This document shows positions 19,644 through 64,000 of a stretch of 64,000 nucleotides of DNA, piece after piece; within the stretch, counting starts at the first letter, position 1, and every line of letters starts with the position of its first letter. A program made the position numbers and the translations under genes. The notes under the pieces are model-generated. The model was not told the origin of the DNA. It searched no databases and saw nothing but the letters and a program-made list of their open reading frames with translations. The stretch is from Minisyncoccota bacterium (GTDB taxonomy: Bacteria; Patescibacteriota; Minisyncoccia; Minisyncoccales; JAGOPM01). The DNA lies in the NCBI GenBank assembly GCA_041651395.1, contig JBAZJI010000001.1, positions 891,920-955,919 on the forward strand. Reading direction: 5' to 3'.

Positions 19644-19663
19644 ACCAACATCCTATTAACAGC

Positions 19664-19695: not shown

Positions 19696-19716
19696 ATGTT
19701 CTGATATTTGATTTCA

Positions 19717-19744
19717 TTGACATTATTCAAGGCGCGAATAAAAT
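19717..19744 (+). promoter_or_regulatory. Proximal dnaA promoter (TTGACA-16-TAAAAT)
   Basis: TTGACA at 19717-19722 and TAAAAT at 19739-19744. The ATG is at 19773. Confidence 0.45.
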
Positions 19745-19772
19745 AAGAACAAGAATTGAACAACATAACAAC

Positions 19773-22507: not shown

Positions 22508-22530
22508 GCTTAATCGAGAAAGAAATAAAA

Positions 22531-22556
22531 ATACCCACTTGAGTGGGTATTTTTTT
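22531..22556. terminator. Bidirectional intrinsic terminator between dnaN and the PBP gene
   Basis: aaaaatacccac-ttga-gtgggtattttttt. Confidence 0.8.
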
Positions 22557-24477: not shown

Positions 24478-24490
24478 AATTTACGATTAA

Positions 24491-24499
24491 TGATATAAT
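24491..24499 (+). promoter_or_regulatory. Extended -10 (TGaTATAAT) placed for a leaderless tyrS mRNA
   Basis: TATAAT lies at 24494-24499, preceded by TGa. The A of the tyrS ATG (24506) is exactly 7 nt after the hexamer. Confidence 0.5.
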
Positions 24500-24505
24500 A
24501 AATTT

Positions 24506-25699: not shown

Positions 25700-25706
25700 C
25701 AAAAAA

Positions 25707-25734
25707 ACCATCCGGGTAGCCGGATGGTTTTTTT
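25707..25734. terminator. Bidirectional intrinsic terminator shared by tyrS and the acidic-protein gene
   Basis: aaaaaaaccatccgg-gtag-ccggatggttttttt. Confidence 0.85.
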
Positions 25735-25933
25735 ATATATCGTCGTCGTGGTCGTTACTACTCTCTTCTTCCTCTTCTTTTTCCTCTAATTCTTCAGAAC
25801 CCTCTCCCAGATCTTCCTCGATACCTAAATCCTCCCCATCTTCTTCTGAGCCATATTCCGTATCGTCATCTTCTTCGTTAGTCATATCCCCCCAGAAAGA
25901 GTATATTTTATTTTCTTCTTCTTGGAAAAACAT
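25733..25933 (-). CDS. Hyper-acidic 66-aa protein (32 of 66 residues are D/E)
   Basis: The ORF is bracketed by a consensus promoter and a strong terminator. Sequence: MFFQEEENKIYSFWGDMTNEEDDDTEYGSEEDGEDLGIEEDLGEGSEELEEKEEEEESSNDHDDDI. No family recognised. Confidence 0.55.
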   Translation of the reverse strand: MFFQEEENKIYSFWGDMTNEEDDDTEYGSEEDGEDLGIEEDLGEGSEELEEKEEEEESSNDHDDDI

Positions 25934-25984
25934 ATTTTTATGTATGCAAAAATATTATTTACTTATTTTTGTTATTCTTATGGG

Positions 25985-26012
25985 ATTATAGAAATTCTAA
26001 AAGCGCTGTCAA
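25985..26012 (-). promoter_or_regulatory. Consensus sigma70-type promoter TTGACA-16-TATAAT for the acidic-protein gene
   Basis: On the minus strand, TTGACA lies at 26012-26007 (overlapping the ruvC stop codon) and TATAAT at 25990-25985. Confidence 0.6.
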
Positions 26013-40265: not shown

Positions 40266-41831
40266 TTCCTTAATCATATAAGTCCCTGAAAGCTTGTAGT
40301 CGAATTTGCGATAATAGTCGCGGACTCCCACTCCGGAGATAACCGCGATTTTTTTATAGCCGTTCTTTTTGGCGATTTGCTCGGCAATCTCTAAAAGTTT
40401 TCTACCCAGGCCCTGGTGCTGGCTGGCCGACTTTTCTTTTTTAGAAACCTCTAATTGCTGGCCATAGGTATGGACTTCGCGGATAAGGGCGGCATCTTTT
40501 AATTCTGGCAAAATAGCTTCGCCAAATGGCAGGCGCAGCCTTAAAAGGCTTATCAGCTTAGTGCGTTCTTTATTCTCAAAAGATAAAAAGAATTCTTGCC
40601 CTTCGCCGGCTTGGTATTTTTCGATAAAAAGTTCCAAGGAGTTTTCTTTAAGCTTTTCTCCTTTGATTTCCCGGCAGCGGATACAATGGCAGGCTTTATT
40701 TGCTTTCTTTAAGTCTTCTAAAATATGCTGGCGCAAGTTAGTGACTTTAGCTGCCTCATTAAGAGCATACTGTGAGGGAATGTCGCGGATAACGCGCTCC
40801 ACTCTAACATAGTAGGGAAGGCTGCATTTTATTTGGGCCAAGAGAGCGCTTAGTTCTTCAAGGGTATAAGACTTAAATTTTTTGTTTTTCCAGAGTTTAT
40901 AAAGTGGCGCTTCTTTCAAGACGGCCAAGGGGTAGATTTTCAAAAAGTCTGGTTGGAAGCGGCTATCGTTAAAAAGAATTTCAAACATTTCTAAATCTTT
41001 GCAGAAATTCGAACCGGGGAGGTTGGGCATTATTTGATAGGCGATTTTGAAACCGGCATTGCGTAAAAGTTTTGTAGCTAAAATTGTTTTGTCGCTTAAA
41101 TGCCCGCGTTTGTTTAGTTCTAAAACATTATCGAAAATGGACTGGACGCCTAATTCTACCTTAGTGACGCCCAATTCACGCAAGAATTTGATTTCTTTTA
41201 TATCAATGCAATCTGGCCTAGTTTCAACGGCAATACCGATAATCCTGTGCTTGGCTTTTTCGTTCTTTTTTTGCTCTTGGGCTAAGGTAGCAACTTTTGT
41301 TTTAGACAAATTACAAGCAGCAAAACAATCGCGAATAAATTTGGTTCTATATTGTTTAGGGTATGCGCTCCAAGTGGCGCCGATTATGCGCAGATCGATT
41401 TTATCCGTGGCGTGCCCGCTTTGGCTTAAAACTTCCAGGCGCTGGGCAACTTGCTTGGTTGCGTCAAATTTCAAATCAAAAGCGCGCTGGGCCGCCGGCT
41501 CGCCTTTAAGATAGCTTTTGGGCATGCCGCTTTGCTGTGGGCAATAAAGGCAGCGCCCCGGGCACTCATAAGGCTTGGTTAAAACCGAAATATTAACAAT
41601 GCCGGAAAGCGAGCGCACTGGGCGTTTGATAAAAAGTTTTCTAATGGCTGGGTTATCCTTAATTTTGCCAGTTTTAAGCAGTTTATGGTATGCTGAAAGC
41701 AGGGAAACGTTAGAGATGTTTTGAAGTTTGAATTTTTTGCTGAATTCGCGCTTAAAGCGTGCCAAATCCTCCGCAGTATTGGGCTGGGATTTGATGAACT
41801 CTATGACTGCTTGCTCAATTAAGTTTTTCAT
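40260..41831 (-). CDS. elp3: Elp3-type radical-SAM + GNAT enzyme (tRNA U34 carboxymethylation family)
   Basis: Radical-SAM cluster motif CPGRCLYCP, TIM-barrel core (RIIGIAVETRPD, ELGVQS), and C-terminal GNAT QHQGLGRKLLEIAEQIAKKNGYKKIAVISGVGVRDYYRKFDY. 523 aa, the canonical Elp3 architecture. Confidence 0.85.
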   Translation of the reverse strand: MKNLIEQAVIEFIKSQPNTAEDLARFKREFSKKFKLQNISNVSLLSAYHKLLKTGKIKDNPAIRKLFIKRPVRSLSGIVNISVLTKPYECPGRCLYCPQQSGMPKSYLKGEPAAQRAFDLKFDATKQVAQRLEVLSQSGHATDKIDLRIIGATWSAYPKQYRTKFIRDCFAACNLSKTKVATLAQEQKKNEKAKHRIIGIAVETRPDCIDIKEIKFLRELGVTKVELGVQSIFDNVLELNKRGHLSDKTILATKLLRNAGFKIAYQIMPNLPGSNFCKDLEMFEILFNDSRFQPDFLKIYPLAVLKEAPLYKLWKNKKFKSYTLEELSALLAQIKCSLPYYVRVERVIRDIPSQYALNEAAKVTNLRQHILEDLKKANKACHCIRCREIKGEKLKENSLELFIEKYQAGEGQEFFLSFENKERTKLISLLRLRLPFGEAILPELKDAALIREVHTYGQQLEVSKKEKSASQHQGLGRKLLEIAEQIAKKNGYKKIAVISGVGVRDYYRKFDYKLSGTYMIKEL

Positions 41832-49235: not shown

Positions 49236-50915
49236 ATGCAAAGAAAAAAGGCAGTTCTTTGCTTTTTTGCTGTATTGTTTGCATTCTTGGCAACGATTGT
49301 TTTTAGTGTGTCTGCGGCTACTAAAAAACCACTCGCAACCAAATCGGCAACAAGTCAGCAAAATGAAGGAACGGTTACAAATCAAAGCGGGGGAGGTATG
49401 GCTTCTCCAATAAATTGTTTTGCATACTTTAAGCCTGATACTGTACTTATCAGTCTTAGTGCTTCCTCTCCTGATTATAAAGTCGGCGATGAGATTAAAT
49501 TAACCGCCAAAGTCAGCAATGCAAACAATTTTCCTATCGCTCAAGGTAATTTGTTCATACAGATTTATCGCCAATCGGGTGAAGGTGGTGCCCCGGATTA
49601 TCTAGTTGATGAATTTTTTGTCCAAGATGTAGCGCTTAATGCCCGCGAAATCCGTAATATTGATTTTGCTTGGCGAGCCCCCTCGGGAATTTCTGGCGGA
49701 AAATATACCGTTGGAGCATTTTTTACTCTGAATAAAAGTATTTATATTTCCGGAGCTCCATTTAATGAAAAAGCTTATGATAAGGCCTTTACGACTTTTA
49801 ATATCCGCTCCATTGATGACGCCAGCGAGGTAGCGGTAGACAAGAAAAATATTATTTTTAACGGCCAGACATATAATTATTTTTCCTTAATTCCGGTAGT
49901 TAAGGCTGGCCAGCCGATCGAAGTTGTTTCTACAGCCAAAAATCTTTCCAATAAATCCCAAGAAATAAAGATATCAAAAAAAATATATTTTTGGGATAAT
50001 TTAAGCGAGGACGCGATAGTCCAAAAAGAAACAGAAAAGGCTACGCTAAATGCCGGCGGTTCGCTGAATTTGTATTATTCGACCAAAGGTCTTAATAGTG
50101 GGGCTTATTTGTATGAATTAGTGGTCGAAAGCCAGAGTGGAGTTAAATCTATTGCCAAAGTCCGTTTTCAAGTAAAAGGAGACAAGCCTGTGGCCCATAT
50201 TAAGTTTTTAGCCTTAAGTAGTTGGCCGATTAAAAAGGATCAAAACATGTTTATCTTTAATTGTTTTGAGTCCATTGTCCCGGGGGATAGGGTAGATGGA
50301 AAGGTTTATTTAACTTTGCGCGATGCCTCTGACAATAGCGTTTTGCAGCGGGTAGAATATAGTGGTCCAATCGGTTATAGCCCTATTGCTATTAAAAACG
50401 ATTTTAAGGCGGACAAGGAAAGGTATGCGGTAATTTTGGAATCACAAATTTACGATCGGGGTGGAAATTTACTCGACCAAGAAACGATAAAATATGATTG
50501 TTCATCTTTTGATAATGAGGTCCGGGATGTGAAAATAGAAGTCAACGAAAAGGAAAACACAATCAAGGCTTTCGGAGTTAATTCTTGCGGCTCGCAGGTA
50601 AAGGGGAGAATTAGTTTAGAAGTGATAAAAATCAGTGGAGCCAACAAGAAGATATTTTTGGAGAAGGATTTTCAAGGCGACGAATTGTCAAAAAATATTT
50701 CTTTGAAAGGTGGGCAAACCTACAAAATTACGGCAAAAGTTAATGCGGTTTTGCGCTCCATTGAATATAAATCGACCAAGCCAAATTATGATTGGATTTG
50801 GTGGGTCGTCGGCTTTGGTCTTATTGCTTTAATTATATTTTTCTTTATTAAGCGCCAAATGGACAAAGCTTCCGCGGCTCCTGTCCAGTTTCATCAATCA
50901 ACATTCCAACAATGA
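49236..50915 (+). CDS. Surface protein A1: signal peptide, multi-domain beta-rich ectodomain (CARDB/Ig-like by eye), C-terminal TM anchor
   Basis: N-terminal VLCFFAVLFAFLATIVFSVSA. C-terminal WIWWVVGFGLIALIIFFFIKRQ. Clear paralog of 60910-62481, for example LFIQIYRQ..YLVDEFFVQD..FAWRAPSGISGGKY versus IVVQIYRL..YLLDEFVLEK..FRWQIPNGLNSGAY. Confidence 0.75.
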   Translation: MQRKKAVLCFFAVLFAFLATIVFSVSAATKKPLATKSATSQQNEGTVTNQSGGGMASPINCFAYFKPDTVLISLSASSPDYKVGDEIKLTAKVSNANNFPIAQGNLFIQIYRQSGEGGAPDYLVDEFFVQDVALNAREIRNIDFAWRAPSGISGGKYTVGAFFTLNKSIYISGAPFNEKAYDKAFTTFNIRSIDDASEVAVDKKNIIFNGQTYNYFSLIPVVKAGQPIEVVSTAKNLSNKSQEIKISKKIYFWDNLSEDAIVQKETEKATLNAGGSLNLYYSTKGLNSGAYLYELVVESQSGVKSIAKVRFQVKGDKPVAHIKFLALSSWPIKKDQNMFIFNCFESIVPGDRVDGKVYLTLRDASDNSVLQRVEYSGPIGYSPIAIKNDFKADKERYAVILESQIYDRGGNLLDQETIKYDCSSFDNEVRDVKIEVNEKENTIKAFGVNSCGSQVKGRISLEVIKISGANKKIFLEKDFQGDELSKNISLKGGQTYKITAKVNAVLRSIEYKSTKPNYDWIWWVVGFGLIALIIFFFIKRQMDKASAAPVQFHQSTFQQ

Positions 50916-53900
50916 AAAGGCATATTTTCTTATTTTTAACTCTTGCGCTTTTGGCTGTATTTTTGGATATGGCTGCTCCGCAGATTATCAAAATTAAAGC
51001 CGCGCAAACTTTTTATGCTTGTCGCAAAGCCCCTTCAACCGGCTGCGGCTCTTTGACGGCTCAAGATATTGATGATTGTCAAAGGCAAGTTCAAGGGACT
51101 TGTTATACTGACCCAAATTGCAATGGCGCCTGTAACGCAACTTTGGATCGTAATGTTTATGCTTGCGTCGGGGGAAATAATTCCTGTGCGCTCTTAGGTC
51201 AAACTACCGATTCTTTGGCCACCTGCCAATCCAAAGTTGGCAAGCCGTGTTTTGAGGATTCTAATTGTTCCGGATCGTGCAGCTCTGGAAGTGGTGCGGG
51301 TTGTAACAAGAATTTTTATTGCGATTCGGGCGAAACAAATGCTAATTGTCCCAGTGATTGCCCATGCAACAATAATGCTGTTTGCGAAGCATATTTAGGG
51401 GAAACGGATAAAAATTGTTCCAGCGATTGCGGTTGCAATAATAATGGGAATTGCGAATCGCAGAGGGGGGAAGATAAAACTAATTGTGCCGCCGATTGTG
51501 ACCGGGGTATAGGCTGTAATAATAATGGCCGCTGCGAAACCGGGGAAAATTCTACAAATTGTCCGAACGACTGTAAGTCCGGCGATTATAGTAAGAATGT
51601 TTACGCATGCGAAACCGGAAAGTGCGTGTATAAGGCTAATTGTATGAGCTACACAGGAATCAGCTGTTATCCCGACCCCGATTGTTACGGGGCGTGCAGT
51701 GGCTCTGGGGCGAGGGTTTTATACGGGTGCCGCGATAATAGCTGTATTGATTTGGGTGCGGCAACGACCGATACATTGCAACAATGTCAGCAGCGGTGGG
51801 GCTTTGCGTGTTTTGAAAACATGGATTCCTGTCGGGCGTCTTGTGGTCCGGCTAAAAAAACTTTTTATTATTGCCCGGCAAGCGGGGGAGCATCTTGCCA
51901 GCCAACTAATGATTTTTCCGATGCGACAGATTGCAGCCAGACGCTTTGGTTAAAAAATATCGCCAAAAATGGGATTTGGTGCCAAGAATCCCAATTTAAG
52001 GGTGCCTGTGATTATGATTGTTCGAAAAATGCTTGTAATAATGACAGAACATGTCAGCCGCAAAATGGCGAATCTAGGCAAAATTGCGTTGACTGTATTT
52101 GCAATAAAGATTTTAATTGTGAATTTTCTGCGGGTGAGAATTATTCTAATTGCCCCAGTGATTGTCCGTGTAATTTTAATGGCACTTGTGAGACATATTT
52201 AGGGGAAAATTCCACAAATTGCATTCAAGATTGTTCATGTAATAAGAATAATATTTGCGAATCCCAGAGAGGGGAAAGCTATTCGAATTGTTCAAGCGAT
52301 TGCAAATATACCTCAGGGAAAATTATTGTGAATACTTTGCCCTTTGAGCTTAATAATCCCCCCGGAGGCTTGATGATGAATGGCGAGCTTGCAGATCTGG
52401 GAGGAATTGCCGTGTTGGACGTGGGTTTTATAATTTATCCCGAAGGAAGCACGCCGATAATGAGCGATCCGAACAATACTTATAGTATTGTTCGTGCAAA
52501 TGTTCTCAATGGGGCGGCGCGCTTTGCCCTTCCTGCGCAAAATGCATTTTTTTACGGTTTTCCAATATTACCTAAGTTTCAAGGGAAAAATCGCCTTTGC
52601 TATAAGGCGTATGCAATGGATGCCAATGGCGGGACTATTGATAAAAATCAAACAGTGGCATTTGGAGGCGAGGTTTGTTTTACCGTACCCCAAAAACAAG
52701 AGATTGTCTGTGGCAACGGCAGTTGTGAGAGCGGAGAAAGCTATCAAAATTGTCCTGCGGATTGCCCCAAATCATCAGTTTGCGGGGATGGTAAATGTGA
52801 AAGCGATGAAATCCTTAATTGTCCTAAAGATTGTAATTCGGCAGTCTGTGCGATACATACCGCGGGAGTTGGAGGCTCAACGAATGCTTATGGGTTTTCT
52901 TTAAGAGGGAGGGTTGATGATCCGAACAATACGATATATAAAGATGCAATTTTTGGATTTGAAATTTATAACTTGCGCAACGGGAAGAATATTTTTTCTG
53001 GCGATTACCAAAATGTGGCGGTAACTTGTGATGCTACAGGGGGGAGGGATATCCCGAAGTATTGCGATCTTTCTCAAAAAGAGTTTGTCGTATTTTTAAC
53101 TAATGGTGTGCTGTTAAATAGCTCAATGCTTTCCAATGCGGCGCTGGGCGATACCGTTTGTGCGAGGGCTTTTATGTCTTCTTCGGTCAAAGATTATAGG
53201 AAAATTGAAAATAGGATATACGCGAATTCTTCCGAGGATATATGTTGGGTTTTGAGCGATAAGCAAGTCAGTTGGGATAAATATGGTTTTAGCACTTGCG
53301 GTTCAAAGTGTTCCAATGTCGAGCGCCCTGGTTGTTCGGGAACATATACTCCCCCAGTTCAAGAAAGACAGATGAATTGCGTTAATTCCGGTTTAGGCAC
53401 GGCGGCAGGAGTAGTGGAGATTTGCTCTAGTGTTATTCCGGCTGCCGGCTGTAATAGGGGAGATGTATTGATTGCGCTTGAGCCTTCCGATGGAGCAACT
53501 GTAAATTATGCCAAAGTTTATTTAACACTTTATAGCGGCCGAGGGATTAAGTTTATTTCTGATTATTCTGATTCTGATTACAAGGCGCAAGTATCCGGGG
53601 AAAATGTTTTTTGGGATGTTGGTAAATTTTCTCAAAAAGTTCAGCTGAGGTTTCAAGTCAGTTTTCCCGATGGCCAAATCAACCAAATGGTTAATTATAC
53701 TTTCGGGAAAAATAAAGTTTATCACGGGTGTAATGCCGCGGGCTGTAATGGTGAAGCTACCATTTACGATATGATTTTGAGCCCGAAGTGCGGAGTTGAT
53801 ATTTGCAGGGTAGACGGGATTTGTGATGTGGCGGTCGGAGAAACTTTGGAAAACTGTTCTAGTGACTGCAAAAATCAAGTTTGCAATTCTGATGGTAAAT

Positions 53901-56650
53901 GCGATCTTGGCAAGGGAGAAACTTTTCTTAATTGTCCGAAAGATTGTGGGCAATTTAAGAATTTTTCCATAATCACTTTGGATGCCAATGATGTCAGTGA
54001 TCACTCTGCCACTATCCGGGGAACAATCCCGGGTATGGGTGATGTTAAGACCGCCCAGTATTATCTCTCTTATTATATTTGCGACGAGAAGGCTAGAGAT
54101 AATTTGCATTTAGGACAAAGCTATATTGCTGCTTTCGGGCAGACGAAGGCCGGAGGGCTTTTTGAAGCCAAACTCGATTATCTTTTCCCCGGGATGAAGT
54201 ATTGTTTCGAGGCCTCGGCTTATGATGTGGACAATAAAAATAATATGCTCACCGGCGGGCAAAAAGAGTTTACGACTTTAGCTCCTTCTAGCGGTATTAA
54301 TTGTCCGAATTTATCTTCTCCGATTAATAGCACTAAAATTCAAACCCTGACTCCTGAACTTAAATGGACAAGCGTCTCTGGTGCCACTTATTATCGTTAT
54401 GCGATTTTTAAGGATTTTTGGAACATGTCTGCACCCTCTGAGGCCAATGGTGTTATTATTCCTAATGCCAAAGTGGCGCCCAATTCTCTCATTTGGGCTC
54501 GGCAATATATTTGGGCGGTTAATGCTTGTAAAGACAGTACAATGAAAGAATGCTCTGGTTGGTGCATGCCTTCGTCTTTTATTACCGGAGATTTATTGGC
54601 CGCGCCTAAAATTATTAGGCCCAGTGGCGACATTACCTCTACTCAACCTTTGATTGAATGGGAATATGTTTCTGGCGGGAATTATTATGAGTGGGTCATA
54701 GAGAGGGAAAGTCCCGCTTTAGGTATTCCCAAGGTAGCCGAAAGCGGACTGACCAAAGAAAAAACCGCTTCAGCCACCAAGAATTTGGCCTTGGGAAATT
54801 ATTTGATAAAAGTTCGCGCCTGCTCTGACCAGCAAATGGTGATTTGTGGCGAGTATGCAGAGGTCAAATTTTCAGTTAAAACCGATGAGCAACTTAAGGC
54901 CAAATGCGGCACATTGCGGATTTCTAGTGACAATAAAAAGGAAGGGTATTTTATGATGTGTGCCAACGGTAAAACTTGGCCTTGTGATGATGGTGCCCTT
55001 TCTCCCGATTATCCTATTAATAATAAGAGCGATTATTTATACGACAAGGCGGTTGATTTAGGCTTAACACCCGGAGAATTCCAAGCAGACTATTATGTTA
55101 ATACTGCCCAATATGATATCTATCTGCAAGACAAAGTAAATGGTACTAAATATCCCACTAATTCCGCTCTACCTTCCAATCATAAAGAATATAAGTTGAT
55201 AGTCGATCCGTTAAAAGTCCCCAATAATACTTTAGTCGAAAAGAGTCGGGCTGGGGGAGGAACATATAATATCCCAGCTGATATGGCTCAAGACGTGCTT
55301 TCCCTTTACCAATCGGCTACTCCGGCAATTGAGGCTAAAGTTGCTGATCAGCTGCCGATTTATGATGGTGACAGAGAGCTTGAATGGAATTTGGATGAAA
55401 TGTTTTTCGGATTCATTATGGATAATCCGTTATTTAAGCCAGGATTAACCGTCGATGGAGGAAATTACTTTGAAATCAAAAAAGATTCCGGTAGTGGGGA
55501 AATTTCGGTTACTATCAAAGATAGTGCCTTGGGCGGGTCAGAATTGGATAAAATGCAGTTGTCGGTAGCTATTCCTCAGCTTAATACTTTTCAAACTATA
55601 AATAATCTGTGGTATAACCAAGGCTGTCTCGACGCTCAAGAGGTGCCGCAAGTTTTAGAATTTACCATCGGTCCGCCGGTGGAAGATTGCAAAGCGCTTA
55701 ATTGTGCCAGCTTACAGTGCGCCGTGGAGCCAACCTGTTCCTATGAGGGCGGCGAGAGTGTTGCAGCCAGTAAAGATCAGAAGACTGAATATAAATGGAA
55801 TCTTTATCCAGATACTCCAGCTAAGGGCCGATCTTTAATTTGCCAATATTCTGGAATAAGCCTGACCATGCCGCCTTGCGATTCAAATGCCCCACCAAAA
55901 CAAGTTTTTTCTTTGACGGAAATAGATTATTGCTCTTATCCTGTGATTCTTAATTTCAGCTGGAAGCCAAGCCAAGAAACATCTCATACGCAAATAGCCT
56001 ATACCATTAATATCGAGAGGCAAACCAAGGATGGTTGGGAACAGATCATGAGTTATGAAAATAATGACCCTGTTACGGGCGGATCAAATGTAAAAAGCAT
56101 CAAAGTATTTGGAAAGGGTTTGGCTGTTGGGAGTAAAGGGGAGATTGATTTCACAAACAGAGATGATTCTGATAGGGACAATTTAAGAGCTTCGGTAATT
56201 GTTAAAGCGGAAAATGGGTTAACTTCGGAATCTTCAGACCCAGTTGAATTTATTTTACCGGCCAAGCCGCGGCCCATTCCAGTTATCCCTGTTAGCGGTC
56301 CTAAAAAATATGTGGCTAATCCGGAAACGCGCCAAATTACATTTTATGGTGAGCTAAATGCCGACCAGCAGAGTATTGGTATGAGCGCCCCCGATGCTAA
56401 TTCTTGGTATTGGTATAAGGGTTTGGGGGAAGCTGTTATAGCCGAAAGAGGGGAGCCAATTTACGGTGATGAGGATGCTATTATTGGATATAAGCCGGAA
56501 AAAACTTACCCCTTCAGACTGCGCGAACCGATAGAAGTCCGTTTGGAATTTACACACTCCGATACTGTCGATAACAAAAATTGTTCTGCGCCCATCAAGC
56601 TTATTGAGGGGACGGATGTTATCTTTAGGAGCAAAGGCCCGCAAATATAA
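50912..56650 (+). CDS. Giant secreted Cys-rich protein B1 (1912 aa) with several repeat families
   Basis: Signal peptide. Five copies of a ~45-aa six-Cys module. Twelve copies of a ~22-aa C-x4-C-x(4-7)-[GE]-x(3-4)-C-x2-DC repeat in four blocks (~51302-51574, 52034-52303, ~52707-52845, ~53797-53950), each block followed by an Ig/FN3-like domain. Two W..V.GA.YY.Y modules. The C-terminal ~900 aa is collinear with B2. Confidence 0.8.
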   Translation: MKRHIFLFLTLALLAVFLDMAAPQIIKIKAAQTFYACRKAPSTGCGSLTAQDIDDCQRQVQGTCYTDPNCNGACNATLDRNVYACVGGNNSCALLGQTTDSLATCQSKVGKPCFEDSNCSGSCSSGSGAGCNKNFYCDSGETNANCPSDCPCNNNAVCEAYLGETDKNCSSDCGCNNNGNCESQRGEDKTNCAADCDRGIGCNNNGRCETGENSTNCPNDCKSGDYSKNVYACETGKCVYKANCMSYTGISCYPDPDCYGACSGSGARVLYGCRDNSCIDLGAATTDTLQQCQQRWGFACFENMDSCRASCGPAKKTFYYCPASGGASCQPTNDFSDATDCSQTLWLKNIAKNGIWCQESQFKGACDYDCSKNACNNDRTCQPQNGESRQNCVDCICNKDFNCEFSAGENYSNCPSDCPCNFNGTCETYLGENSTNCIQDCSCNKNNICESQRGESYSNCSSDCKYTSGKIIVNTLPFELNNPPGGLMMNGELADLGGIAVLDVGFIIYPEGSTPIMSDPNNTYSIVRANVLNGAARFALPAQNAFFYGFPILPKFQGKNRLCYKAYAMDANGGTIDKNQTVAFGGEVCFTVPQKQEIVCGNGSCESGESYQNCPADCPKSSVCGDGKCESDEILNCPKDCNSAVCAIHTAGVGGSTNAYGFSLRGRVDDPNNTIYKDAIFGFEIYNLRNGKNIFSGDYQNVAVTCDATGGRDIPKYCDLSQKEFVVFLTNGVLLNSSMLSNAALGDTVCARAFMSSSVKDYRKIENRIYANSSEDICWVLSDKQVSWDKYGFSTCGSKCSNVERPGCSGTYTPPVQERQMNCVNSGLGTAAGVVEICSSVIPAAGCNRGDVLIALEPSDGATVNYAKVYLTLYSGRGIKFISDYSDSDYKAQVSGENVFWDVGKFSQKVQLRFQVSFPDGQINQMVNYTFGKNKVYHGCNAAGCNGEATIYDMILSPKCGVDICRVDGICDVAVGETLENCSSDCKNQVCNSDGKCDLGKGETFLNCPKDCGQFKNFSIITLDANDVSDHSATIRGTIPGMGDVKTAQYYLSYYICDEKARDNLHLGQSYIAAFGQTKAGGLFEAKLDYLFPGMKYCFEASAYDVDNKNNMLTGGQKEFTTLAPSSGINCPNLSSPINSTKIQTLTPELKWTSVSGATYYRYAIFKDFWNMSAPSEANGVIIPNAKVAPNSLIWARQYIWAVNACKDSTMKECSGWCMPSSFITGDLLAAPKIIRPSGDITSTQPLIEWEYVSGGNYYEWVIERESPALGIPKVAESGLTKEKTASATKNLALGNYLIKVRACSDQQMVICGEYAEVKFSVKTDEQLKAKCGTLRISSDNKKEGYFMMCANGKTWPCDDGALSPDYPINNKSDYLYDKAVDLGLTPGEFQADYYVNTAQYDIYLQDKVNGTKYPTNSALPSNHKEYKLIVDPLKVPNNTLVEKSRAGGGTYNIPADMAQDVLSLYQSATPAIEAKVADQLPIYDGDRELEWNLDEMFFGFIMDNPLFKPGLTVDGGNYFEIKKDSGSGEISVTIKDSALGGSELDKMQLSVAIPQLNTFQTINNLWYNQGCLDAQEVPQVLEFTIGPPVEDCKALNCASLQCAVEPTCSYEGGESVAASKDQKTEYKWNLYPDTPAKGRSLICQYSGISLTMPPCDSNAPPKQVFSLTEIDYCSYPVILNFSWKPSQETSHTQIAYTINIERQTKDGWEQIMSYENNDPVTGGSNVKSIKVFGKGLAVGSKGEIDFTNRDDSDRDNLRASVIVKAENGLTSESSDPVEFILPAKPRPIPVIPVSGPKKYVANPETRQITFYGELNADQQSIGMSAPDANSWYWYKGLGEAVIAERGEPIYGDEDAIIGYKPEKTYPFRLREPIEVRLEFTHSDTVDNKNCSAPIKLIEGTDVIFRSKGPQI

Positions 56651-56657
56651 TAAAGTT

Positions 56658-59600
56658 ATGAGCCAGAAGTCTAAATTTGTAATATTTTCTATTATTAGTC
56701 TATTTATCATAGGAGTAATCAGTTTGGCTTTAGCTCAAACCGGTGAAGGCTCTTTGCAGGTAACGGCTAAAATGGCCTGCAATTCTCAGACGTTTGCCAA
56801 GGTGCAAATTCAGATAAAATGTCTTTCCGGCTCAAAAATTGATTGCAAGAAAGAGAATATTTTGAAGTTTAGCAATGTTTCGGCCAATGTTACTTTGCAG
56901 GATGGCACGCCCTATCCTAGCGTCAGTTCGCAGGCCAATTCTGGCGGACAGACAATGTATGAGGACATTTGGAAAAAAATAATTTTTGCCAATGATAACG
57001 ATTCCAGATATTTTTCTTTTCTGACTCCTTTATGTGGCAAGCGCTCGGCTGAACTTACGTATTATGATTTATTGCAGCAAAAAAATATTACCGTTCCCAT
57101 AAAAATAAATAGTCAGGCCTCCCTTGTCTGTTGGCAATGTCCGAGCGGTGAAGAATACAGTACGGTGATCGGCAACGGTTTATCTGCCGGTGGGGCAAAT
57201 ACTGCAACAACGAGTACTCCGGAAAATCCTAGCTTAAATGAAGGCGTAAAAATGCCCTACCTTTATTGTCCTTCCGGTTTAGAGCAGTATTGCCGCCCCA
57301 GCATTGAATTATTTGCAAGCGAAGAGGAGTGTGAGGCTAATATGGCGCAATTTATTCCGCCCTCTATCTCTGGCTCGAAATGTTTTAGTTTAGAAAATGC
57401 TCAGGCTTGCAACACAGCGTGTCAAAATTTTTCTCAGCCTTTTATTCCAACAAGCACACCCCCAAACAACGCTTGTGCCAAGGAAGGGGAGAAGGTAGGC
57501 CAATGCCAAAACCGGCAGTGCTGTGAGGGTTTAGTGCCGCGCCCGCCGCTGGGCCCGGTTTGCCAGGCTTGTGATGTTTGCGAGGCCTTCACTTGCGTGA
57601 AGCCCGATACCCCTCCTACCATCGGTAATGTTAAATGGTGGTATTGCCAAAGTGATGGCAACGGGCAATGTCAACTGAGCGTGGAAAATTTTTCTGAACC
57701 ACAAGCCTGCCTGGATAAATATGCCAGCCAAATTTGTTTTCCTAATGTGAGCGGCTTAGAATCGCAAATGCAAGCCACTTGTAATAACTCGTGCAATACT
57801 TTAGTTAATGGATCTTTATCAGTTCACCCTTTTATTAGCAGCGACGCTTCCTGCAATAAGATTATTAAATTTCAAATAACCTGTTTGCCCGGGAAAAAAA
57901 TAATCTGTTCGGGTATTGATTTGCAATACGAATATTCTCCGGCTGCAGAGTCTTATGTTAGTTCCAAACCTTCCGCCGAGCGATTTGATTTTGGCTATTC
58001 GACTGGTGGCATTATCCATAGCTGGCTATGGCGTGGCATAGAAATAAAGGCCACCAGTTCAGATTATATCATCACTATGAGGCCGGGATCATTTACCAGC
58101 ACTTATGCCGCGACAATTTATCATATTAATCCGACAACCAAAGAGCGTTTGACTACTAGAATTAATATGCCTTGGGTGGAAAAATGTGCTACTGGAGATG
58201 GTGGGATAACAGTGGTTAATCCTGATGATGGGAAAAATAGCCCTTCTTGCGGTAATGCCAGTTGTGAGCCGGCTTTAGGTGAAAATAATTCTTCCTGCCC
58301 TCAAGATTGCCAACAGTGCAATTTGGATAAAATTTGCCAAGCAGCTAGAGGAGAAACAATTGATAATTGTGCTGATTGCGCCAACGGTCAAACATTGGAA
58401 TTTTCCGTAGCCAGCAAGCCCGCCTCAGACATTTCCGAGCAATCAATGGTGCTTAACGGCGAGCTTATGGGGCTAGGCGAAAATAAAAATGTTCTTTACG
58501 GGTTTCAATATTATCCTTGTGCCTTTCCCGAGATGCTCTCGCAGACAAAGTGGCAAACCGCTACTTCGCCCGTGGCCTTTAGCTTTGATTTATTAGAGCT
58601 TCCACCCGATACGGAAATTTGTTTTAAGGCACTAGCTCAAGCCTCAAGCACGGTATTACAAGGCGATTTATTAAAGGCAAAAACTCTATCCAGTAAATCA
58701 GGATTAGTGTGCCCAATGCCGCTTAGCCCCAAGATCGATGAGAATATTACTTCGCTTTCTACTCAACTTAGTTGGTCAATGGTTAATGGGGGGAAATATT
58801 ATCAGTATGCCCTTTATGAAACGACTTTAGGCGGGGCTATGATAAAAGAAGGGGATACTAATAGTAATGCCGTCAATGTCGGGCCTTTGGTTTGGGGCAA
58901 ACATTATTATTGGCGAGTTAATGCCTGCGCTGATTCGACTTTGAAAAATTGTTCTAATTGGTGTCCGGCTTGGCATTTCATAACCGGGGTAATTTTGAAT
59001 CCGCCCGTTATTACTAGCCCATCTTCAACTTCCATTTCTGAGAAAAAACCGTTGTTCTCTTGGGATTATGTATCTGGGGCGCAATATTACGAATATGTTT
59101 TATTGAGCGGTTCGACAGAAATTGTTCGGGACACCATTTCTTCCAATCGGGCCTACCCAGCTAACGAATTGCCTTTGGGCGATTATATTTTGAATGTCCG
59201 GGCTTGCCGCGACCAACAAAAACAAAATTGCAGCGAATATGCAGAGCGCGCCTTTTCTTTGAAAGATGAAGAGACCATTCTGGCTAATTGCAGCGCATTA
59301 AGGATTGGCAGCAAAAAATTCGCCTCCGGGGATCCAAATTATATTTATTTGGAAAAATGTTCAGCAGCCAATTGCCCTTCGCCTTATAAGGAACCTAATA
59401 TTGATCTGAAGGCGAGTTATGTTGTAAATCCAGAATATAAAATTTATTTATTAGACGAAAACCGGGGAATAAAATATGAATCCGGGTCTAGCGAGCCGCT
59501 GCCGCAAGGTCAGACGTTGCGCTTAGTTATCGAACCATTAGTATTGCCAAGCACTAATTTTGGCAATGGCGGCTACAATAATACTGGCGGGCAAAAAATA

Positions 59601-60905
59601 GTTTATTCGGATAACGCCCAAGCCGACTTTGAAAATAATGAAAAATTAATTATTAGTCAGGCTTACGATGATAATGGCGTGCCATTCCAATTAGGTGCCG
59701 TGGCAGATAATCCAGTTAATTTGCCAGATTTTCATGTTTCGCTGAGTAGCCATTTTGAATTAGTTAAAAAGAGCGCCGGGATTTATGTCAAAGCTGCTAA
59801 CCCAACTCTTTCCGAACTTAGCCCCGAGGCTGAAATAAATGTTACCGTTCCTCAGCTCAATTCTTATCAAACTGCCGATAATATTTATTTGAATCAAGGC
59901 TGTATTGCCGCCAGCGCCCCGCAAAAACTCCTTTTTAATATTAAAGCTTTGCAACAGTTAAAAGTTTCCGCCAAATACGAGGGTCGGGGATATGTGAAAA
60001 TTGATGCGGACCCGGCAAAGAGTAATTTGGAATATAAAATGAAGTGCTTTTCGACCTCGCAGGGTAAGCAGGTGGAATTAAGTGTTAGCCAGCAAAGCGA
60101 GGCATCAAGATTTTTGGTGTCAGTAGCCACCGGAATTACTTTGGATAGTAGTGTGCGTTGCGAGTATTCCGTGACCGATCCCGATATTAACGTGGACTTT
60201 TTCGGTTCAATCGAATTTGAAGTTAAGGATATTATGCCAGAAAAGCCGGCGACTCCGATATTTAAGTCGACCAGCGTTGATTATTGCCAATATCCGGCCA
60301 AAATCACTTTTAATTGGGAAAGCCCCTCGCCGCAAAAAGGATATAATTTGGTAGTTTACCAGCAGGAAAATCTTTTAACCGATCATAAAGAGGGAACGGC
60401 TGTGCCTATGGCTGTTAAAAATATTCCCGGAGACGGTGTGGAAAATAAGTTGCGTTTTACCGGCTCGCCTGAGCGGTATTTTGCCGTTGTTTCCGTTCAA
60501 GGAGACAATGGGCTTTGGTCAGAGCCTTCTGATCCTTTCGAATTTTCCATTGAACGCCGCCCCGCCGCCCAACCAATGATAGAGGTGGAGCGCGTGAACA
60601 CGGTTAGGAAGTATATTGAATTCAAGGGTTTCGGAAAAGAATTAATCGATGAAGCTGGCAAACCAGTTGAGGTAACCGTTCCGCCTTCGCAGCTTTGGGA
60701 GTGGTATAGCGATCCGCAACAAGTTGCCCCGGAAAAGGGGATTAATGAAGGCTCGGCATATTTCCGGATTCCTTTTGAAAAGGCTCAGGATATTTATTTG
60801 AAATTGCGCTTTCATGACGAGGATTTGAACGTCTCCTGTGATTATGTCACTACTACAAAATTCAATATTAATGTAGAATTTAAGAATACGGGAACCACAT
60901 TCTAA
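56658..60905 (+). CDS. Giant secreted Cys-rich protein B2 (1415 aa), paralog of B1
   Basis: ATG at 56658 gives MSQKSKFVIFSIISLFIIGVISLALAQ. It shares with B1 the six-Cys modules, 2 CxxDC-type repeats (~58246-58385), an Ig-like domain, 2 YY.Y modules (~58720-59270) and the C-terminal region (PQLN[ST][FY]QT..NQGC, [IV]DYC.YP). Confidence 0.8.
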   Translation: MSQKSKFVIFSIISLFIIGVISLALAQTGEGSLQVTAKMACNSQTFAKVQIQIKCLSGSKIDCKKENILKFSNVSANVTLQDGTPYPSVSSQANSGGQTMYEDIWKKIIFANDNDSRYFSFLTPLCGKRSAELTYYDLLQQKNITVPIKINSQASLVCWQCPSGEEYSTVIGNGLSAGGANTATTSTPENPSLNEGVKMPYLYCPSGLEQYCRPSIELFASEEECEANMAQFIPPSISGSKCFSLENAQACNTACQNFSQPFIPTSTPPNNACAKEGEKVGQCQNRQCCEGLVPRPPLGPVCQACDVCEAFTCVKPDTPPTIGNVKWWYCQSDGNGQCQLSVENFSEPQACLDKYASQICFPNVSGLESQMQATCNNSCNTLVNGSLSVHPFISSDASCNKIIKFQITCLPGKKIICSGIDLQYEYSPAAESYVSSKPSAERFDFGYSTGGIIHSWLWRGIEIKATSSDYIITMRPGSFTSTYAATIYHINPTTKERLTTRINMPWVEKCATGDGGITVVNPDDGKNSPSCGNASCEPALGENNSSCPQDCQQCNLDKICQAARGETIDNCADCANGQTLEFSVASKPASDISEQSMVLNGELMGLGENKNVLYGFQYYPCAFPEMLSQTKWQTATSPVAFSFDLLELPPDTEICFKALAQASSTVLQGDLLKAKTLSSKSGLVCPMPLSPKIDENITSLSTQLSWSMVNGGKYYQYALYETTLGGAMIKEGDTNSNAVNVGPLVWGKHYYWRVNACADSTLKNCSNWCPAWHFITGVILNPPVITSPSSTSISEKKPLFSWDYVSGAQYYEYVLLSGSTEIVRDTISSNRAYPANELPLGDYILNVRACRDQQKQNCSEYAERAFSLKDEETILANCSALRIGSKKFASGDPNYIYLEKCSAANCPSPYKEPNIDLKASYVVNPEYKIYLLDENRGIKYESGSSEPLPQGQTLRLVIEPLVLPSTNFGNGGYNNTGGQKIVYSDNAQADFENNEKLIISQAYDDNGVPFQLGAVADNPVNLPDFHVSLSSHFELVKKSAGIYVKAANPTLSELSPEAEINVTVPQLNSYQTADNIYLNQGCIAASAPQKLLFNIKALQQLKVSAKYEGRGYVKIDADPAKSNLEYKMKCFSTSQGKQVELSVSQQSEASRFLVSVATGITLDSSVRCEYSVTDPDINVDFFGSIEFEVKDIMPEKPATPIFKSTSVDYCQYPAKITFNWESPSPQKGYNLVVYQQENLLTDHKEGTAVPMAVKNIPGDGVENKLRFTGSPERYFAVVSVQGDNGLWSEPSDPFEFSIERRPAAQPMIEVERVNTVRKYIEFKGFGKELIDEAGKPVEVTVPPSQLWEWYSDPQQVAPEKGINEGSAYFRIPFEKAQDIYLKLRFHDEDLNVSCDYVTTTKFNINVEFKNTGTTF

Positions 60906-60909: not shown

Positions 60910-62481
60910 ATGGCTAAAAATAAATTTATAATTACAATATTGCTTTCTTTGTTTTTCCTATCTGGGGTAGCGATAGCCCAAGAGGCAAAAACAGACAATG
61001 CAGGAGCGATACCTTCTTACGAAACGGATAATTGCCTGAAGTATTATAAAATGGATAGTGTCAGGATGACCGTTCAACCCTCGGCCAAAGATTATTCGAC
61101 TGGGCAGACGGTTTCCTTTTCGGGCGCTCTCGAGAATACTAATCAGTTTCCTGTCACCGGAGGCAATATTGTCGTTCAAATTTATCGGCTTAATCCCGAA
61201 GACCAGCGGGTGCGCTATCTTTTAGATGAATTTGTTTTGGAGAAGAATTTTAATTTAATTCCGGAATCTAAAGCCGATTTCGATTTCCGATGGCAGATTC
61301 CCAACGGCTTGAATAGCGGTGCGTATGCAGCGGCCGCCAGTTTGGTTTTAGATAAAAAGATTTATATGGTGGGGCTGCCATTTAGTGATGCTTATGCGGG
61401 CACTTACGCATTTTTTAATATTCGAAATTCCGGGGACGTCCGGGAGGTTTATGTCGACAAGGCTAATGTGAAACTCAATGGTAAAACAATATCACCGACC
61501 GGCTCGATGCCATATGTCGAGAAGGATAAAGATGTAGCTATTGGATATGTATTAGTTAATTCCGGAAAGGATTCGCAAAAAGTTCGGGTAACTAAGCATA
61601 TTTATAATTGGGATCAGCTCCAAAGCGAAAGGGGACAGGCTATTGTTGAGGAAAAGGAAGTTCCTGGAGCTGGAACTATCGAGATTTCTGATAAAATAAG
61701 CGGTTTGGGAGAGGGGGTTTATGTTTATTCTGTTGAGGTTGTGGGCCAAGGCGGAATCAAATCTATTTTCCGTTTGCGTTTTGGTATGGGCGGGAAGGGG
61801 CCACAAGCCAAAGTGGCTTTCTTGGCTCTGGAAAAATTTCCCGTTTCCAAAGATGCTGCTTCTTATATTGTTGGTTGTTTTCATTCCACTTCCTATGAAA
61901 AATCATTTAAGGGAAAAGTTTATATTACCTTGAAAGACAAGGATAATAATATTATTGAGAGGATTGATTATGGCGGAGAAATTTCTCCATTGGTCATGGC
62001 CCTTAGGCGAGATTTTGTTTTTTCTAATAATTATGACGAATTGAAATTGGAATCGCAGGTTTATGACAAAAACGGCAATTTAGTTGATCGGGTTGAGCTG
62101 ATATATAATTGTGATGCTTTTAAGGATCAGCCCGATAGTATGGCAATCTCTGTGGAAAAAGGCGGATTGATAAAGGTAAAATTATTAAATAAATGTAATT
62201 CGGCCGCTAAAGCTAATGTGGCGGTAGAAGTTTTGGACGATAAGGGTAAGGTTGTATTTTACGATCCGGGATATGTGACTCAAGAATATTCCAAAAAAGC
62301 CAAATTCAAATATAATAATCATTATAAAATAACAGCCCAGGCCGGTGGGGTCACTCGTTCCATAGAATATATACATATGGAAAAGGATTACACCTGGGCT
62401 TGGATTCTAGGGGCAGTCTTATCCGCTGTTTTAATCGCTGCCTATTTTGCCTGGAGAGCTAAAAAGCAACAACCATTATGA
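60910..62481 (+). CDS. Surface protein A2 (paralog of A1): signal peptide, beta-rich ectodomain, C-terminal TM anchor
   Basis: N-terminal IITILLSLFFLSGVAIAQ. C-terminal WAWILGAVLSAVLIAAYFAWRAKKQ. Collinear with 49236-50915 over its full length. Confidence 0.75.
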   Translation: MAKNKFIITILLSLFFLSGVAIAQEAKTDNAGAIPSYETDNCLKYYKMDSVRMTVQPSAKDYSTGQTVSFSGALENTNQFPVTGGNIVVQIYRLNPEDQRVRYLLDEFVLEKNFNLIPESKADFDFRWQIPNGLNSGAYAAAASLVLDKKIYMVGLPFSDAYAGTYAFFNIRNSGDVREVYVDKANVKLNGKTISPTGSMPYVEKDKDVAIGYVLVNSGKDSQKVRVTKHIYNWDQLQSERGQAIVEEKEVPGAGTIEISDKISGLGEGVYVYSVEVVGQGGIKSIFRLRFGMGGKGPQAKVAFLALEKFPVSKDAASYIVGCFHSTSYEKSFKGKVYITLKDKDNNIIERIDYGGEISPLVMALRRDFVFSNNYDELKLESQVYDKNGNLVDRVELIYNCDAFKDQPDSMAISVEKGGLIKVKLLNKCNSAAKANVAVEVLDDKGKVVFYDPGYVTQEYSKKAKFKYNNHYKITAQAGGVTRSIEYIHMEKDYTWAWILGAVLSAVLIAAYFAWRAKKQQPL

Positions 62482-64000
62482 ACGGGAAAAAAATATTTTA
62501 TTTTTTAATATCGGCCGCCTTCCTCTTTGCCACCCAGGTGGTTTGGGCTGCAACCTGTGATTGTCCGAAATTTGGGACGCCCACTTCTCCCTATATCAAA
62601 GGGGAGGGATGCGAATCGTCTATTGCGGCGGATAATACCTGCGCTTCTTATACTGACGGTGTTTTTAGTATAAAATATTACGTCGATCCGGCCGCCAAGG
62701 GGTATACAAATTGTGATGGCCCCGTCACTACGGAAAGTATTTATTTTCACCTCAATAAAAGCGGTTCGCCCAGGATAAATTTACCTCCGCCATATTTTGA
62801 TGGCCTGCGCTATAACCAGCAATCCATTCCCGGGCCCTTGCCCTATCAGCAGGGCGAGAAGGCAACCTATTCGACCACAACTTGTCTGACCGAGGGCTAC
62901 TATGATATTTACGGGGGAATTTGCGAAAACGCTTATGGCCGTTGCGATGGGAATAAAATTAATTCCAGTTGTGGCTATAAACATGTCGGTTATTTGTATG
63001 TCAGTAAAGAACAGGAAAAAGCCGGGTGTAATGCTGGGAATAGTTGTGGTAATGGGAAATTGGATAGTGGTGAGGAGTGCGATCCTTCGGTTTCTGGCAC
63101 AACGTGCTGCCTTTCAACGTGCAAAAAGGATACAAATTGCGGCGGCCGCTGCGGGGACGGGATTTTGCAATTATCCAATGGGGAGCAATGCGAGACCGGG
63201 TATGCTTGCACGGGATATGGCTCAGCCACGGAATGTAATCTTTCAACTTGTAAATGTGTGATTCCGGCGAGTAAGTGCGGCAATGGCGCCCTTGATAGTG
63301 GTGAGGAGTGCGATCCATCAATTTCGGGCACAACTTGTTGTACAAACCAATGCAAATATGACACTTCAGCGTTATGTTTGTGCGGCAATAAAAAACTGGA
63401 CGCAGGTGAGGATTGCGACTCTTCAGCTAATGCTTCATGTTCTGCCGGGTATGACTGCCAAACTTGCAAATGCGTGCAAAAGCCGACAGTGACCTGCCAA
63501 GCGAGCTTAGATGTCGTATGTAATAGCGGCCTTAATGATGGTTGTAGCAGTGGTGGTGGGACAGGGGGTGGCAGCGATCCGGGCTGCGGCGGGACAGGGA
63601 CGTCAAATACCTACGCCGATATTGTTATTGCAATGGACAGGACCGGTTCAATGCAGTCAGTCGATTATTCGCGCGTCCGCTCCGAGCTGAAGAATTTTAT
63701 CGACAAGCTTTCCAAAATAAGCGCTAATGTCCGGATAGGGATAGTAACTTTCCCGTATCGGTATAATGACAACCAACCGACTTGCCGGCTTTCATTCCCG
63801 CAGGCTATAGAGCCTACTAATGATTTCAATAAGCTTAAAAATTATGTCGACCAAGTGACCTACGTTGGTGAGGTTAAAGAAAATTTATACTGGACTGATG
63901 TTAATGCCAATAAAAGCCCTTGCGAACAGTCTACTACCAATTTAGGCGGGGCAATTATGAGTGCCTCTTCTATTCTTGATAAAGGTAGCGCTAAAAAGAA
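62478..64000 (+). CDS. Secreted Cys-rich-repeat + von Willebrand factor A domain protein (3'-truncated by the window; absent from the supplied ORF track)
   Basis: Manual translation from ATG 62478 (ATGA overlap with the A2 stop) runs 507 codons with no stop to the window end. It has a signal peptide MNGKKIFYFLISAAFLFATQVVWA, four CG[ND][GK]xLxxGExC[DE] repeats, a Gly-rich linker, then the vWA start ADIVIAMDRTGSM (MIDAS DxTxS) ..VRIGIVTF. Confidence 0.8.
   Translation, partial: MNGKKIFYFLISAAFLFATQVVWAATCDCPKFGTPTSPYIKGEGCESSIAADNTCASYTDGVFSIKYYVDPAAKGYTNCDGPVTTESIYFHLNKSGSPRINLPPPYFDGLRYNQQSIPGPLPYQQGEKATYSTTTCLTEGYYDIYGGICENAYGRCDGNKINSSCGYKHVGYLYVSKEQEKAGCNAGNSCGNGKLDSGEECDPSVSGTTCCLSTCKKDTNCGGRCGDGILQLSNGEQCETGYACTGYGSATECNLSTCKCVIPASKCGNGALDSGEECDPSISGTTCCTNQCKYDTSALCLCGNKKLDAGEDCDSSANASCSAGYDCQTCKCVQKPTVTCQASLDVVCNSGLNDGCSSGGGTGGGSDPGCGGTGTSNTYADIVIAMDRTGSMQSVDYSRVRSELKNFIDKLSKISANVRIGIVTFPYRYNDNQPTCRLSFPQAIEPTNDFNKLKNYVDQVTYVGEVKENLYWTDVNANKSPCEQSTTNLGGAIMSASSILDKGSAKK
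63045..63475 (+). repeat. Intragenic tandem duplication, 231-bp (77-codon) unit, encoding paired Cys-rich repeats
   Basis: CGNG motif codons start at 63045 and 63276 (231 bp apart). Secondary motifs start at 63150 and 63381. An exact 23-bp repeat gatagtggtgaggagtgcgatcc occurs at 63063-63085 and 63294-63316. Confidence 0.8.

Follow-up and report, generated by a model that had tools for sequence, protein, structure and literature searches.

Uncurated cysteine-rich repeat families in two giant secreted proteins of a Paceibacterota bacterium

Introduction

Cultivated Patescibacteria, members of the candidate phyla radiation (CPR), depend on attachment to host cells, and the proteins with which CPR bacteria recognise their hosts are mostly unannotated 'hypotheticals'. 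Here we analyse a stretch of 64,000 nucleotides (the window: positions 891,920 to 955,919 of contig JBAZJI010000001.1, assembly GCA_041651395.1) from Candidatus Paceibacterota, a CPR phylum now named Minisyncoccota. Two adjacent genes of the window encode giant cysteine-rich proteins, A (50912–56650, + strand) and B (56604–60905, + strand). Our subject is two families of cysteine modules that recur along these proteins: (a), with four Cys in ~20–24 amino acids (aa), and (b), with six Cys in ~41–53 aa.

The closest described relatives in kind are large, cysteine-rich, strain-variable extracellular proteins of CPR Peribacteria, for which a role in attachment has been proposed (Anantharaman et al. 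2016, PMC4736985). Those proteins resemble A and B in coming from CPR genomes, exceeding 1000 aa, carrying a signal peptide, containing ~6–7% Cys, being encoded by clustered genes and varying between strains; A and B, at 1912 and 1433 aa with 6.0% (114 residues) and 3.8% Cys, signal peptides and adjacent genes, fall within the same descriptive class. They differ in that they belong to Peribacteria and not to Paceibacterota, and in that no more than 'very weak' similarity to known repeats was described, with no families, consensus, distribution or partner gene defined. Epibiotic growth of a cultivated patescibacterium has been found to require adhesins (PMC10633639). Giant adhesins built from Ig/FN3 domains (Big, fn3) have a signal peptide, huge size, serial beta-sandwiches and strain-level variation in module number in common with A, but the spacers of A are cysteine mini-modules instead of extra Ig domains, and its anchoring would presumably depend on a separate membrane protein.

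Two further groups of short repeats invite comparison with (a). The Myxococcus cysteine-rich repeat (TIGR02232/PF13948, DUF4215) belongs, like (a), to secreted bacterial proteins, in which it forms short, acidic, Cys-rich tandem arrays with a C-G-[ND]-G...G-E opening; it is found in the same proteins and phyla as (a), likewise without an assigned function. In eukaryotes, the EGF/cbEGF, Notch LNR and LDLR class A modules are ~20–40 aa long, held by disulfides, often bound to Ca2+ via Asp, Asn or Glu, and arrayed in tandem as stiff extracellular spacers. They have little secondary structure. Family (a) resembles them, with an invariant Glu and Asp and with conserved Asn/Asp positions, but they contain six Cys where (a) has four, and no Pfam, PDB-profile or Foldseek match connects the two. 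The general kind of protein described here, a giant secreted CPR protein with Cys-rich tandem repeats, is already known, while both module families are uncurated; what the analysis yields is the annotation of new families and a candidate host-interaction locus, not a new principle.

Family (a) is a large family present in Bacteria and Archaea

Twelve (a) units were found in A, arranged as 4+4+2+2, and two in B, with exact agreement between a regular expression and a hidden Markov model (HMM); these counts and their coordinates match those given in a first-pass annotation made from the letters alone. When each unit was left out of the profile in turn, every one was retrieved at 8.4–35.7 bits, compared with a maximum of 5.5 bits among 400 shuffled proteins. 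In the alignment of the window units, C, C, C, D and C are invariant, and G-E and N nearly so. A six-frame scan of the window detected neither (a) nor (b) outside A and B.

To define the extent of the family, an exhaustive HMMER search with a two-unit profile was conducted against 1.84 billion cluster representatives, and this identified at least 1,418 protein clusters with (a) at E <= 1e-3, of which 376 had E <= 1e-10 and 34 had E <= 1e-30. Among 155 of these proteins that were examined, the median number of units was 6.5 and the maximum 21. The consensus over 1,089 units is C-G-[ND]-G-x-C-[DE]-x(1-3)-G-E-x3-[NST]-C-P-x-D-C, in which conservation reaches ~100% at the four Cys, at the Glu and at the Asp; the 'CNNNGxC' (C-x5-C) form seen in the window is a minority variant.

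A scan of one genome per species confirmed 433 loci with (a). Myxococcota predominate among the best 80 of these, the taxonomic proportions being skewed by the peptide patterns on which the scan relied. Other loci lie in DPANN archaea (Nanobdellati, Iainarchaeum), Nitrospirota, Chloroflexota, Bacteroidota and Acidobacteriota, and, within the CPR, in Peribacteria, Peregrinibacteria and Patescibacteria; only one viral contig carried (a). A hydrophobic N-terminus is present in ~63% of the family matches, and the domains that co-occur with (a) are extracellular ones (SLH, trypsin, PPC, fn3, prepilin N-methyl, NosD); Hint and pretoxin-HINT domains co-occur with it as well. Family (a) is a large cross-domain family, present in both Bacteria and Archaea, and the likeness to repeats of archaeal and CPR surface proteins that had been sensed at first reading is borne out by its presence in DPANN, CPR, Myxococcota and other genomes. 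Its definition offers a new handle for annotating thousands of secreted proteins.

Neither family maps onto a curated family or a solved structure

Searches of Pfam and NCBIfam returned nothing significant for A or B (E <= 1) or for isolated repeat blocks (E <= 10). The best matches, both far below cut-off, were DUF7107 (E = 0.033) and EGF_2 (E = 0.52; 11 bits against a cut-off of 22), and models for Big, fn3, RTX, LPXTG and SLH did not match A or B. The same held for (a) elsewhere: in P0002, with 17 units, no Pfam match covered the repeat, and among 94 (a)-rich proteins compared with Pfam/NCBIfam none had a model covering it, the incidental matches being RET_CRD (4 proteins), DUF4215 (2), TIGR02232 (2) and TIGR04201 (2, weak).

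Nor was anything significant found for either module when all PDB chains were searched by sequence and by profile. The best profile match of two-unit (a) was an AN1 zinc finger at E = 0.19, and the (a) profiles found nothing else at E <= 10 in a set that included Notch LNR, PAPP-A, EGF and LDLR-A chains. Foldseek searches of PDB and BFVD returned no significant match for either cysteine module. For (b), comparison with defensin-type folds gave only an AtDEF-like match at E = 4.7, and the Foldseek matches of the modelled construct were dominated by its Ig domain.

EGF-like families (PF00008, PF07645, PF07974) have six Cys per ~40 aa, as against four in 20–24 aa in (a). The DUF4215 core reads E-x-C-D-D-G-N...D-G-C-x3-C, from which (a) differs in that its second Cys stands 5–6 residues on and that it ends in N-C-P-x-D-C; (a) lacks the CDDGN core, and the curated TIGR02232/PF13948 model is silent on it. 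Where DUF4215 and TIGR02232 did match (a)-rich proteins, the matches are consistent with separate CDDGN-type repeats located in such proteins by regular expression, and alignment of the two repeat types with hhalign gave 2% probability over 7 aligned columns. The first reading had been unable to name a curated family, and nothing in Pfam, NCBIfam, TIGRFAM or the solved structures maps onto these repeats.

Architecture of the two giants

Giant A is encoded by the single 1912-aa reading frame that had been proposed for it, with an N-terminal signal peptide and without a C-terminal anchor, and is identical in sequence to NCBI MFA5166544.1 (WC449_04615), "hypothetical protein [Candidatus Paceibacterota bacterium]". 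Among all giants examined, every one has a signal peptide and none a C-terminal anchor. From the N-terminus, A begins with (b) modules b1 and b2 (51011–51280; aa 34–74 and 82–123, six Cys each), continues with (a) block 1 of four units (51302–51574; aa 131–221) and modules b3, b4 and b5 (51599–52021; aa 230–262, 270–311 and 318–370), and then reaches (a) block 2, again of four units (52034–52303; aa 375–464). Block 2 leads into an Ig/FN3-like beta-sandwich (52307–52705; aa 466–598). Block 3, of two C-x4-C-type units (52709–52834; aa 600–641), and block 4, of two units (53804–53947; aa 965–1012), are each followed by a beta domain that alignment indicates to be homologous to the first (52835–53281, ~aa 642–790 with an approximate end, and 53951–54286, aa 1014–1125). 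Two FN3-like 'W..V.G..YY' modules come next (54287–54871; aa 1126–1225 and 1226–1320), recognised in the translation and collinear with B, and the remainder is an orphan C-terminal region common to A and B (54872–56647; A aa 1321–1912). All of these features lie on the + strand.

Giant B, 1433 aa when counted from a TTG start, carries two (b) modules (57258–57794, +; aa 219–273 and 345–397) and two (a) units (58248–58379, +; aa 549–592) followed by a beta domain. Residues 957–1835 of A are collinear with 546–1368 of B at 28% identity (E = 2.5e-75). The long shared C-terminal region noticed at first reading is accounted for by this alignment, and the paired W..V.G..YY modules described there can be seen in both translations. 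The further proposal that an Ig/FN3-like domain follows each (a) block stands for blocks 2–4 of A and for the block of B; it fails for block 1 of A, behind which lie (b) modules and no Ig-like domain.

Some details of the two proteins fall outside this scheme. Between blocks 3 and 4, A aa 643–963 (52838–53800) contains 11 Cys with irregular spacing (aa 778–960) that belong to no module; this segment is among the best conserved between strains (96% identity, with the lowest synonymous divergence (dS), 0.27). An antisense open reading frame (ORF) of 195 aa within giant A (53522–54109, - strand) is most likely a spurious shadow ORF. In B, the region between the two (b) modules holds an unrelated eight-Cys cluster, CAKEGEKVGQCQNRQCCEGLVPRPPLGPVCQACDVCEAFTC (57474–57596; B aa 291–331), which fits neither (a) nor (b). 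Where B starts is ambiguous: counted from the TTG at 56604 it overlaps A by 47 nucleotides (nt), the public gene call is 56616, and the signal peptide proper starts at a Met encoded at 56658 (MSQKSKFVIF...).

Predicted structure and cysteine pairing

A model of A 226–600 had a mean predicted local distance difference test score (pLDDT) of 68.6. In it, each (b) module appears as a beta-hairpin, one further strand and a short helix that spans the terminal C-x3-C (pLDDT 58–84), and the (a) units appear as coil with short turns. When four (a) units were modelled together, pLDDT was 79 with almost no helix or strand. Residues 466–598 were modelled as a seven-strand sandwich, for which Foldseek retrieved from PDB the FN3 domains of IL-12R beta1, the Ig-like domain of PPAD and nanobodies (probability 0.99–1.0, E ~5e-4). 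On the strength of this model and its Foldseek matches, the domain after block 2 of A is an Ig/FN3-like beta-sandwich; the Pfam fn3 HMM is silent on it.

Natural variants provide some information on how the Cys of (a) may pair. Units that have lost two Cys lack C1 and C3 in two cases (P0055) and C2 and C4 in one (P0113), with no other pair lost together. These co-losses weakly favour C1–C3 and C2–C4 disulfides over a Cys4 metal site. The 'disulfide-knotted spacer' of the first-pass annotation is accordingly best worded as a prediction, to which extracellular targeting, a confident yet unstructured model and three Cys-pair-loss variants all point.

Family (b) is restricted to a Paceibacterota lineage

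The seven (b) modules, five in A and two in B as originally counted, were recovered and align on their six Cys and on an aromatic pair ahead of the first Cys. Profile comparison showed (a) and (b) to be unrelated to each other. Within the window the leave-one-out HMM for (b) was weak, with three of the seven modules scoring no higher than shuffled sequences. An extended HMM trained on A, B, P0001, P0006 and P0008 detected five (b) modules in each of three giants that had not been used for training (L084, L085, L087), at 16–26 bits, compared with a maximum of 8.5 bits among 600 locally shuffled sequences. Among the (a)-rich proteins, the HMM for (b) matched only A, B, the orthologue P0001, P0006 and P0008, and nothing in the other ~150; (b) is confined to positional orthologues of giant A. 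The module is genuine and lineage-restricted, being specific to a Paceibacterota lineage.

A third module, (c), with four Cys ([WY]-x-C-[NDS]-x(2-6)-C-x(12-18)-C-x3-C), was observed in P0006 (aa 436–910), P0008 (aa 589–1095) and the L084 and L087 giants. In the P0008 clade, 6–8 copies of it follow the (a) run. A and B lack this module, which resembles a shortened relative of (b).

The giant is the divergence hotspot of its locus

Comparison with a sister strain (locus L002, giant P0001) showed the flanking Ino1, pyruvate kinase and NUDIX genes to be 97.7–98.4% identical and small1, the gene immediately upstream of A, 95.0% identical. By contrast, giant A is 76.6% identical to its counterpart (BLAST), with 305 gap columns in the global alignment. 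Over its N-terminal aa 1–373 the protein has been rearranged: the order of modules in A is b1 b2 a1–a4 b3 b4 b5 a5–a8, and that in P0001 is b1 b5 b2 b1 b5 a1 a7 a8. The middle region (aa 643–1320) retains 92–96% identity with a dS of 0.27–0.79, and the C-terminal region (aa 1321–1912) 82–88% identity with a dS of 1.15–1.44, which suggests recombinational import of the C-terminus from a more divergent allele. Within the P0008 clade, L085 and L087 are 96.6% identical at the C-terminus and differ by an indel of a ~310-aa module-bearing segment. The comparison of repeats between strains that had been advised at the outset has in this way revealed differences in the number and order of N-terminal modules between A and P0001 and a module-bearing indel between L085 and L087, and the giant is the divergence hotspot of its locus. 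Since the (a) units share merely 40–68% DNA identity with one another, recent expansion or slippage as their origin is ruled out.

A membrane partner is conserved next to the giant

The giants lie in a run of genes, all on the + strand, in the order small1, A, B, small2 and a third Cys-rich protein with a VWA domain, with junctions that overlap or are spaced by 4 nt. The small proteins each have a signal peptide and a C-terminal transmembrane helix: small1 (49236–50915, +; 559 aa), which shares its last 4 nt with the start of A, and small2 (60910–62481, +; 523 aa). They are paralogues that flank both giants (33% identity, E = 9e-97), and no family match was obtained for either. The neighbourhood seen in the window is found again at the P0008 locus of a distant relative, in the order Elp3, Ino1, HHH_8, pyruvate kinase, NUDIX, a ~516–529-aa protein and the giant, and also in L084, L085 and L087. 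In all five syntenic relatives examined (L002, L083, L084, L085, L087) a homologue of the small protein lies directly upstream of the giant. The conservation and synteny of the pair argue for a functional unit, in which the small protein may serve as an anchor or assembly partner. With an N-terminal module array in the giant that differs between strains otherwise ~98% identical, membrane partner and giant form a candidate locus for host interaction or strain specificity in Paceibacterota.

Proposed role and alternative explanations

Taken together, these data lead us to give a probability of roughly 0.6 to the reading that A and B are secreted, surface- or adhesin-like giants in which (a) forms disulfide-stabilised rigid spacers between Ig/FN3-like domains and (b) a variable distal array. 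Each (a) unit lacks regular secondary structure and would most likely be held by two disulfides, C1–C3 and C2–C4; its invariant Glu and Asp could coordinate a cation or take part in a hydrogen-bond network. In tandem, the units would act as stiff spacers, non-globular and resistant to proteases, that hold the Ig/FN3-like domains apart and extend them outwards. The N-terminal (b)/(a) array, presumed to be cell-distal and reshuffled between strains, would be the most plausible surface for recognition or contact, and the small membrane partner would anchor or assemble the giant. An adhesin or host-contact function may be proposed on these grounds; it agrees with the attachment role suggested for the Peribacteria proteins (PMC4736985) and with the need of a cultivated patescibacterium for adhesins (PMC10633639).

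Several points weigh against this reading. The Cys co-loss evidence consists of three units from two proteins only, and the disulfides of the giants are themselves predicted. No Dsb, VKOR or thioredoxin-like gene was detected among the 34 window ORFs scanned, the giants and their partners among them, which cover 64 of ~957 kb. Many CPR bacteria inhabit anoxic environments, where it is less obvious that disulfides would form outside the cell, and the question arises as to how an organism with a ~1-Mb genome oxidises or stabilises more than 100 extracellular Cys per protein. No binding domain or host has been identified for A or B, and the C-terminal ~590 aa are an orphan region with no family match. 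The ratio of nonsynonymous to synonymous divergence is well under 1 throughout the giant (0.03–0.24), so that its variation is to be ascribed to module indels and mosaic recombination under purifying selection, with no detectable positive selection. The bias of the genome scan towards its own peptide patterns, mentioned above, counts here too.

The Cys could instead bind metal, with the four of (a) or the six of (b) holding Zn, or Fe if conditions are anoxic, in metal-stabilised or metal-sequestering arrays. Such a role would suit the four invariant Cys and invariant acidic residues of each (a) unit, the failure to find an oxidoreductase in the 64-kb window and the AN1 zinc finger as best PDB match of the two-unit profile. 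We consider it improbable: with an E-value of 0.19 that match is not significant, Cys are lost as 1+3 or 2+4 while the rest of the unit is kept, a pattern easier to reconcile with pairwise bonds than with a site of four ligands, and the giants carry secretion signals. In addition, the C-x4/5-C and C-x3-C spacings differ from those of usual CxxC zinc knuckles, and (a) is abundant in Myxococcota, which are mostly aerobic. Quite improbable, in our estimation, is the idea that (a) is a divergent or shortened form of a curated repeat (TIGR02232/PF13948 DUF4215, LNR or EGF-like) missed by thresholds. The 'CGNG...GE' opening common to (a) and DUF4215, and their co-occurrence in P0028, P0069, P0104 and P0125, are what make it worth considering; yet TIGR02232 and DUF4215 each match just two of the 94 (a)-rich proteins, at the separate CDDGN-type repeats, hhalign finds next to no relation, Pfam/NCBIfam stay silent on the window protein and its repeat blocks, and the PDB profile searches, Notch LNR, PAPP-A, EGF and LDLR-A chains included, are negative. 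That the patterns only reflect a composition rich in Cys, Asn and Gly deserves practically no credence. In its favour are the three (b) modules that did no better than shuffles within the window. Every (a) unit scored above all shuffles, both HMMs match unrelated or untrained proteins far above locally shuffled controls, and the non-Cys G, E, N, P and D positions are conserved over 1,089 (a) units. The leave-one-out tests, the exhaustive search and the untrained relatives refute a compositional artefact, and the retrieval by the (a) HMM of its own and of foreign copies disposes of the same doubt as raised by the first-pass annotation.

Another explanation concerns the proteins as wholes: the giants could form an envelope structure, such as an S-layer or sheath-like coat, or carry at the C-terminus an unrecognised domain of enzymatic or toxic activity, the Cys modules being only a stabilising scaffold. 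The orphan C-terminus leaves room for this, SLH, proteases, Hint and pretoxin-HINT are among the partner domains of the (a) family, and A 643–1320 is the region most conserved between strains, at 96%. Against it, neither A nor B has an SLH, anchor or lattice-type domain according to Pfam/NCBIfam, no sign of a catalytic motif emerged, and a modular Ig/FN3 architecture with a strain-variable tip would be more typical of adhesin-like proteins; we regard a coat or toxin role as unlikely. Beyond the adhesin-like reading itself, a bolder and speculative version, to which we give little weight, would make (a) an ancient mini-fold of Bacteria and Archaea, without structural relative among solved proteins, that was recruited mainly by contact-living CPR and DPANN episymbionts and predatory Myxococcota. 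The Paceibacterota run of membrane partner and giant would then be a host-recognition locus in which specificity for host or phage is reset when the (b)/(a) modules at the tip are shuffled.

Other features of the window

The last gene of the run within the window encodes the third secreted Cys-rich protein (62478–64000, +), which begins in an ATGA overlap with the stop of small2 and runs beyond the end of the window. Behind its N-terminus, MNGKKIFYFLISAAFLF, are four 'CGNGxLDxGEECD'-type repeats that are DUF4215-like, with no match at E <= 0.01, and after these a VWA domain (PF00092, E = 5.6e-5) that is incomplete at the window end. A minus-strand ORF at 62990–63469 is a probable shadow of this gene.

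Elsewhere, the genes of the window are bacterial in type, including PBP1A, WalK-like kinases, a PilB/GspE ATPase and a VirB4-like CD1110 ATPase. A full-length Elp3-type radical-SAM/GNAT tRNA-modification enzyme is encoded at 40260–41831 (- strand; TIGR01211, E = 2e-157), and the synteny of this gene is kept in the distant relative L083. Among unannotated ORFs, a type IV secretion-like cluster was recognised at 10278–17894, with a PrgI-family protein (10743–11138) and the VirB4-like CD1110-family ATPase (11787–13586); it matches the monoderm-type type IV secretion system described for Patescibacteria (PMC12102498). The G+C content falls to 33–37% at 18001–26000, compared with 42–48% in the first 17 kb and ~40–43% elsewhere.

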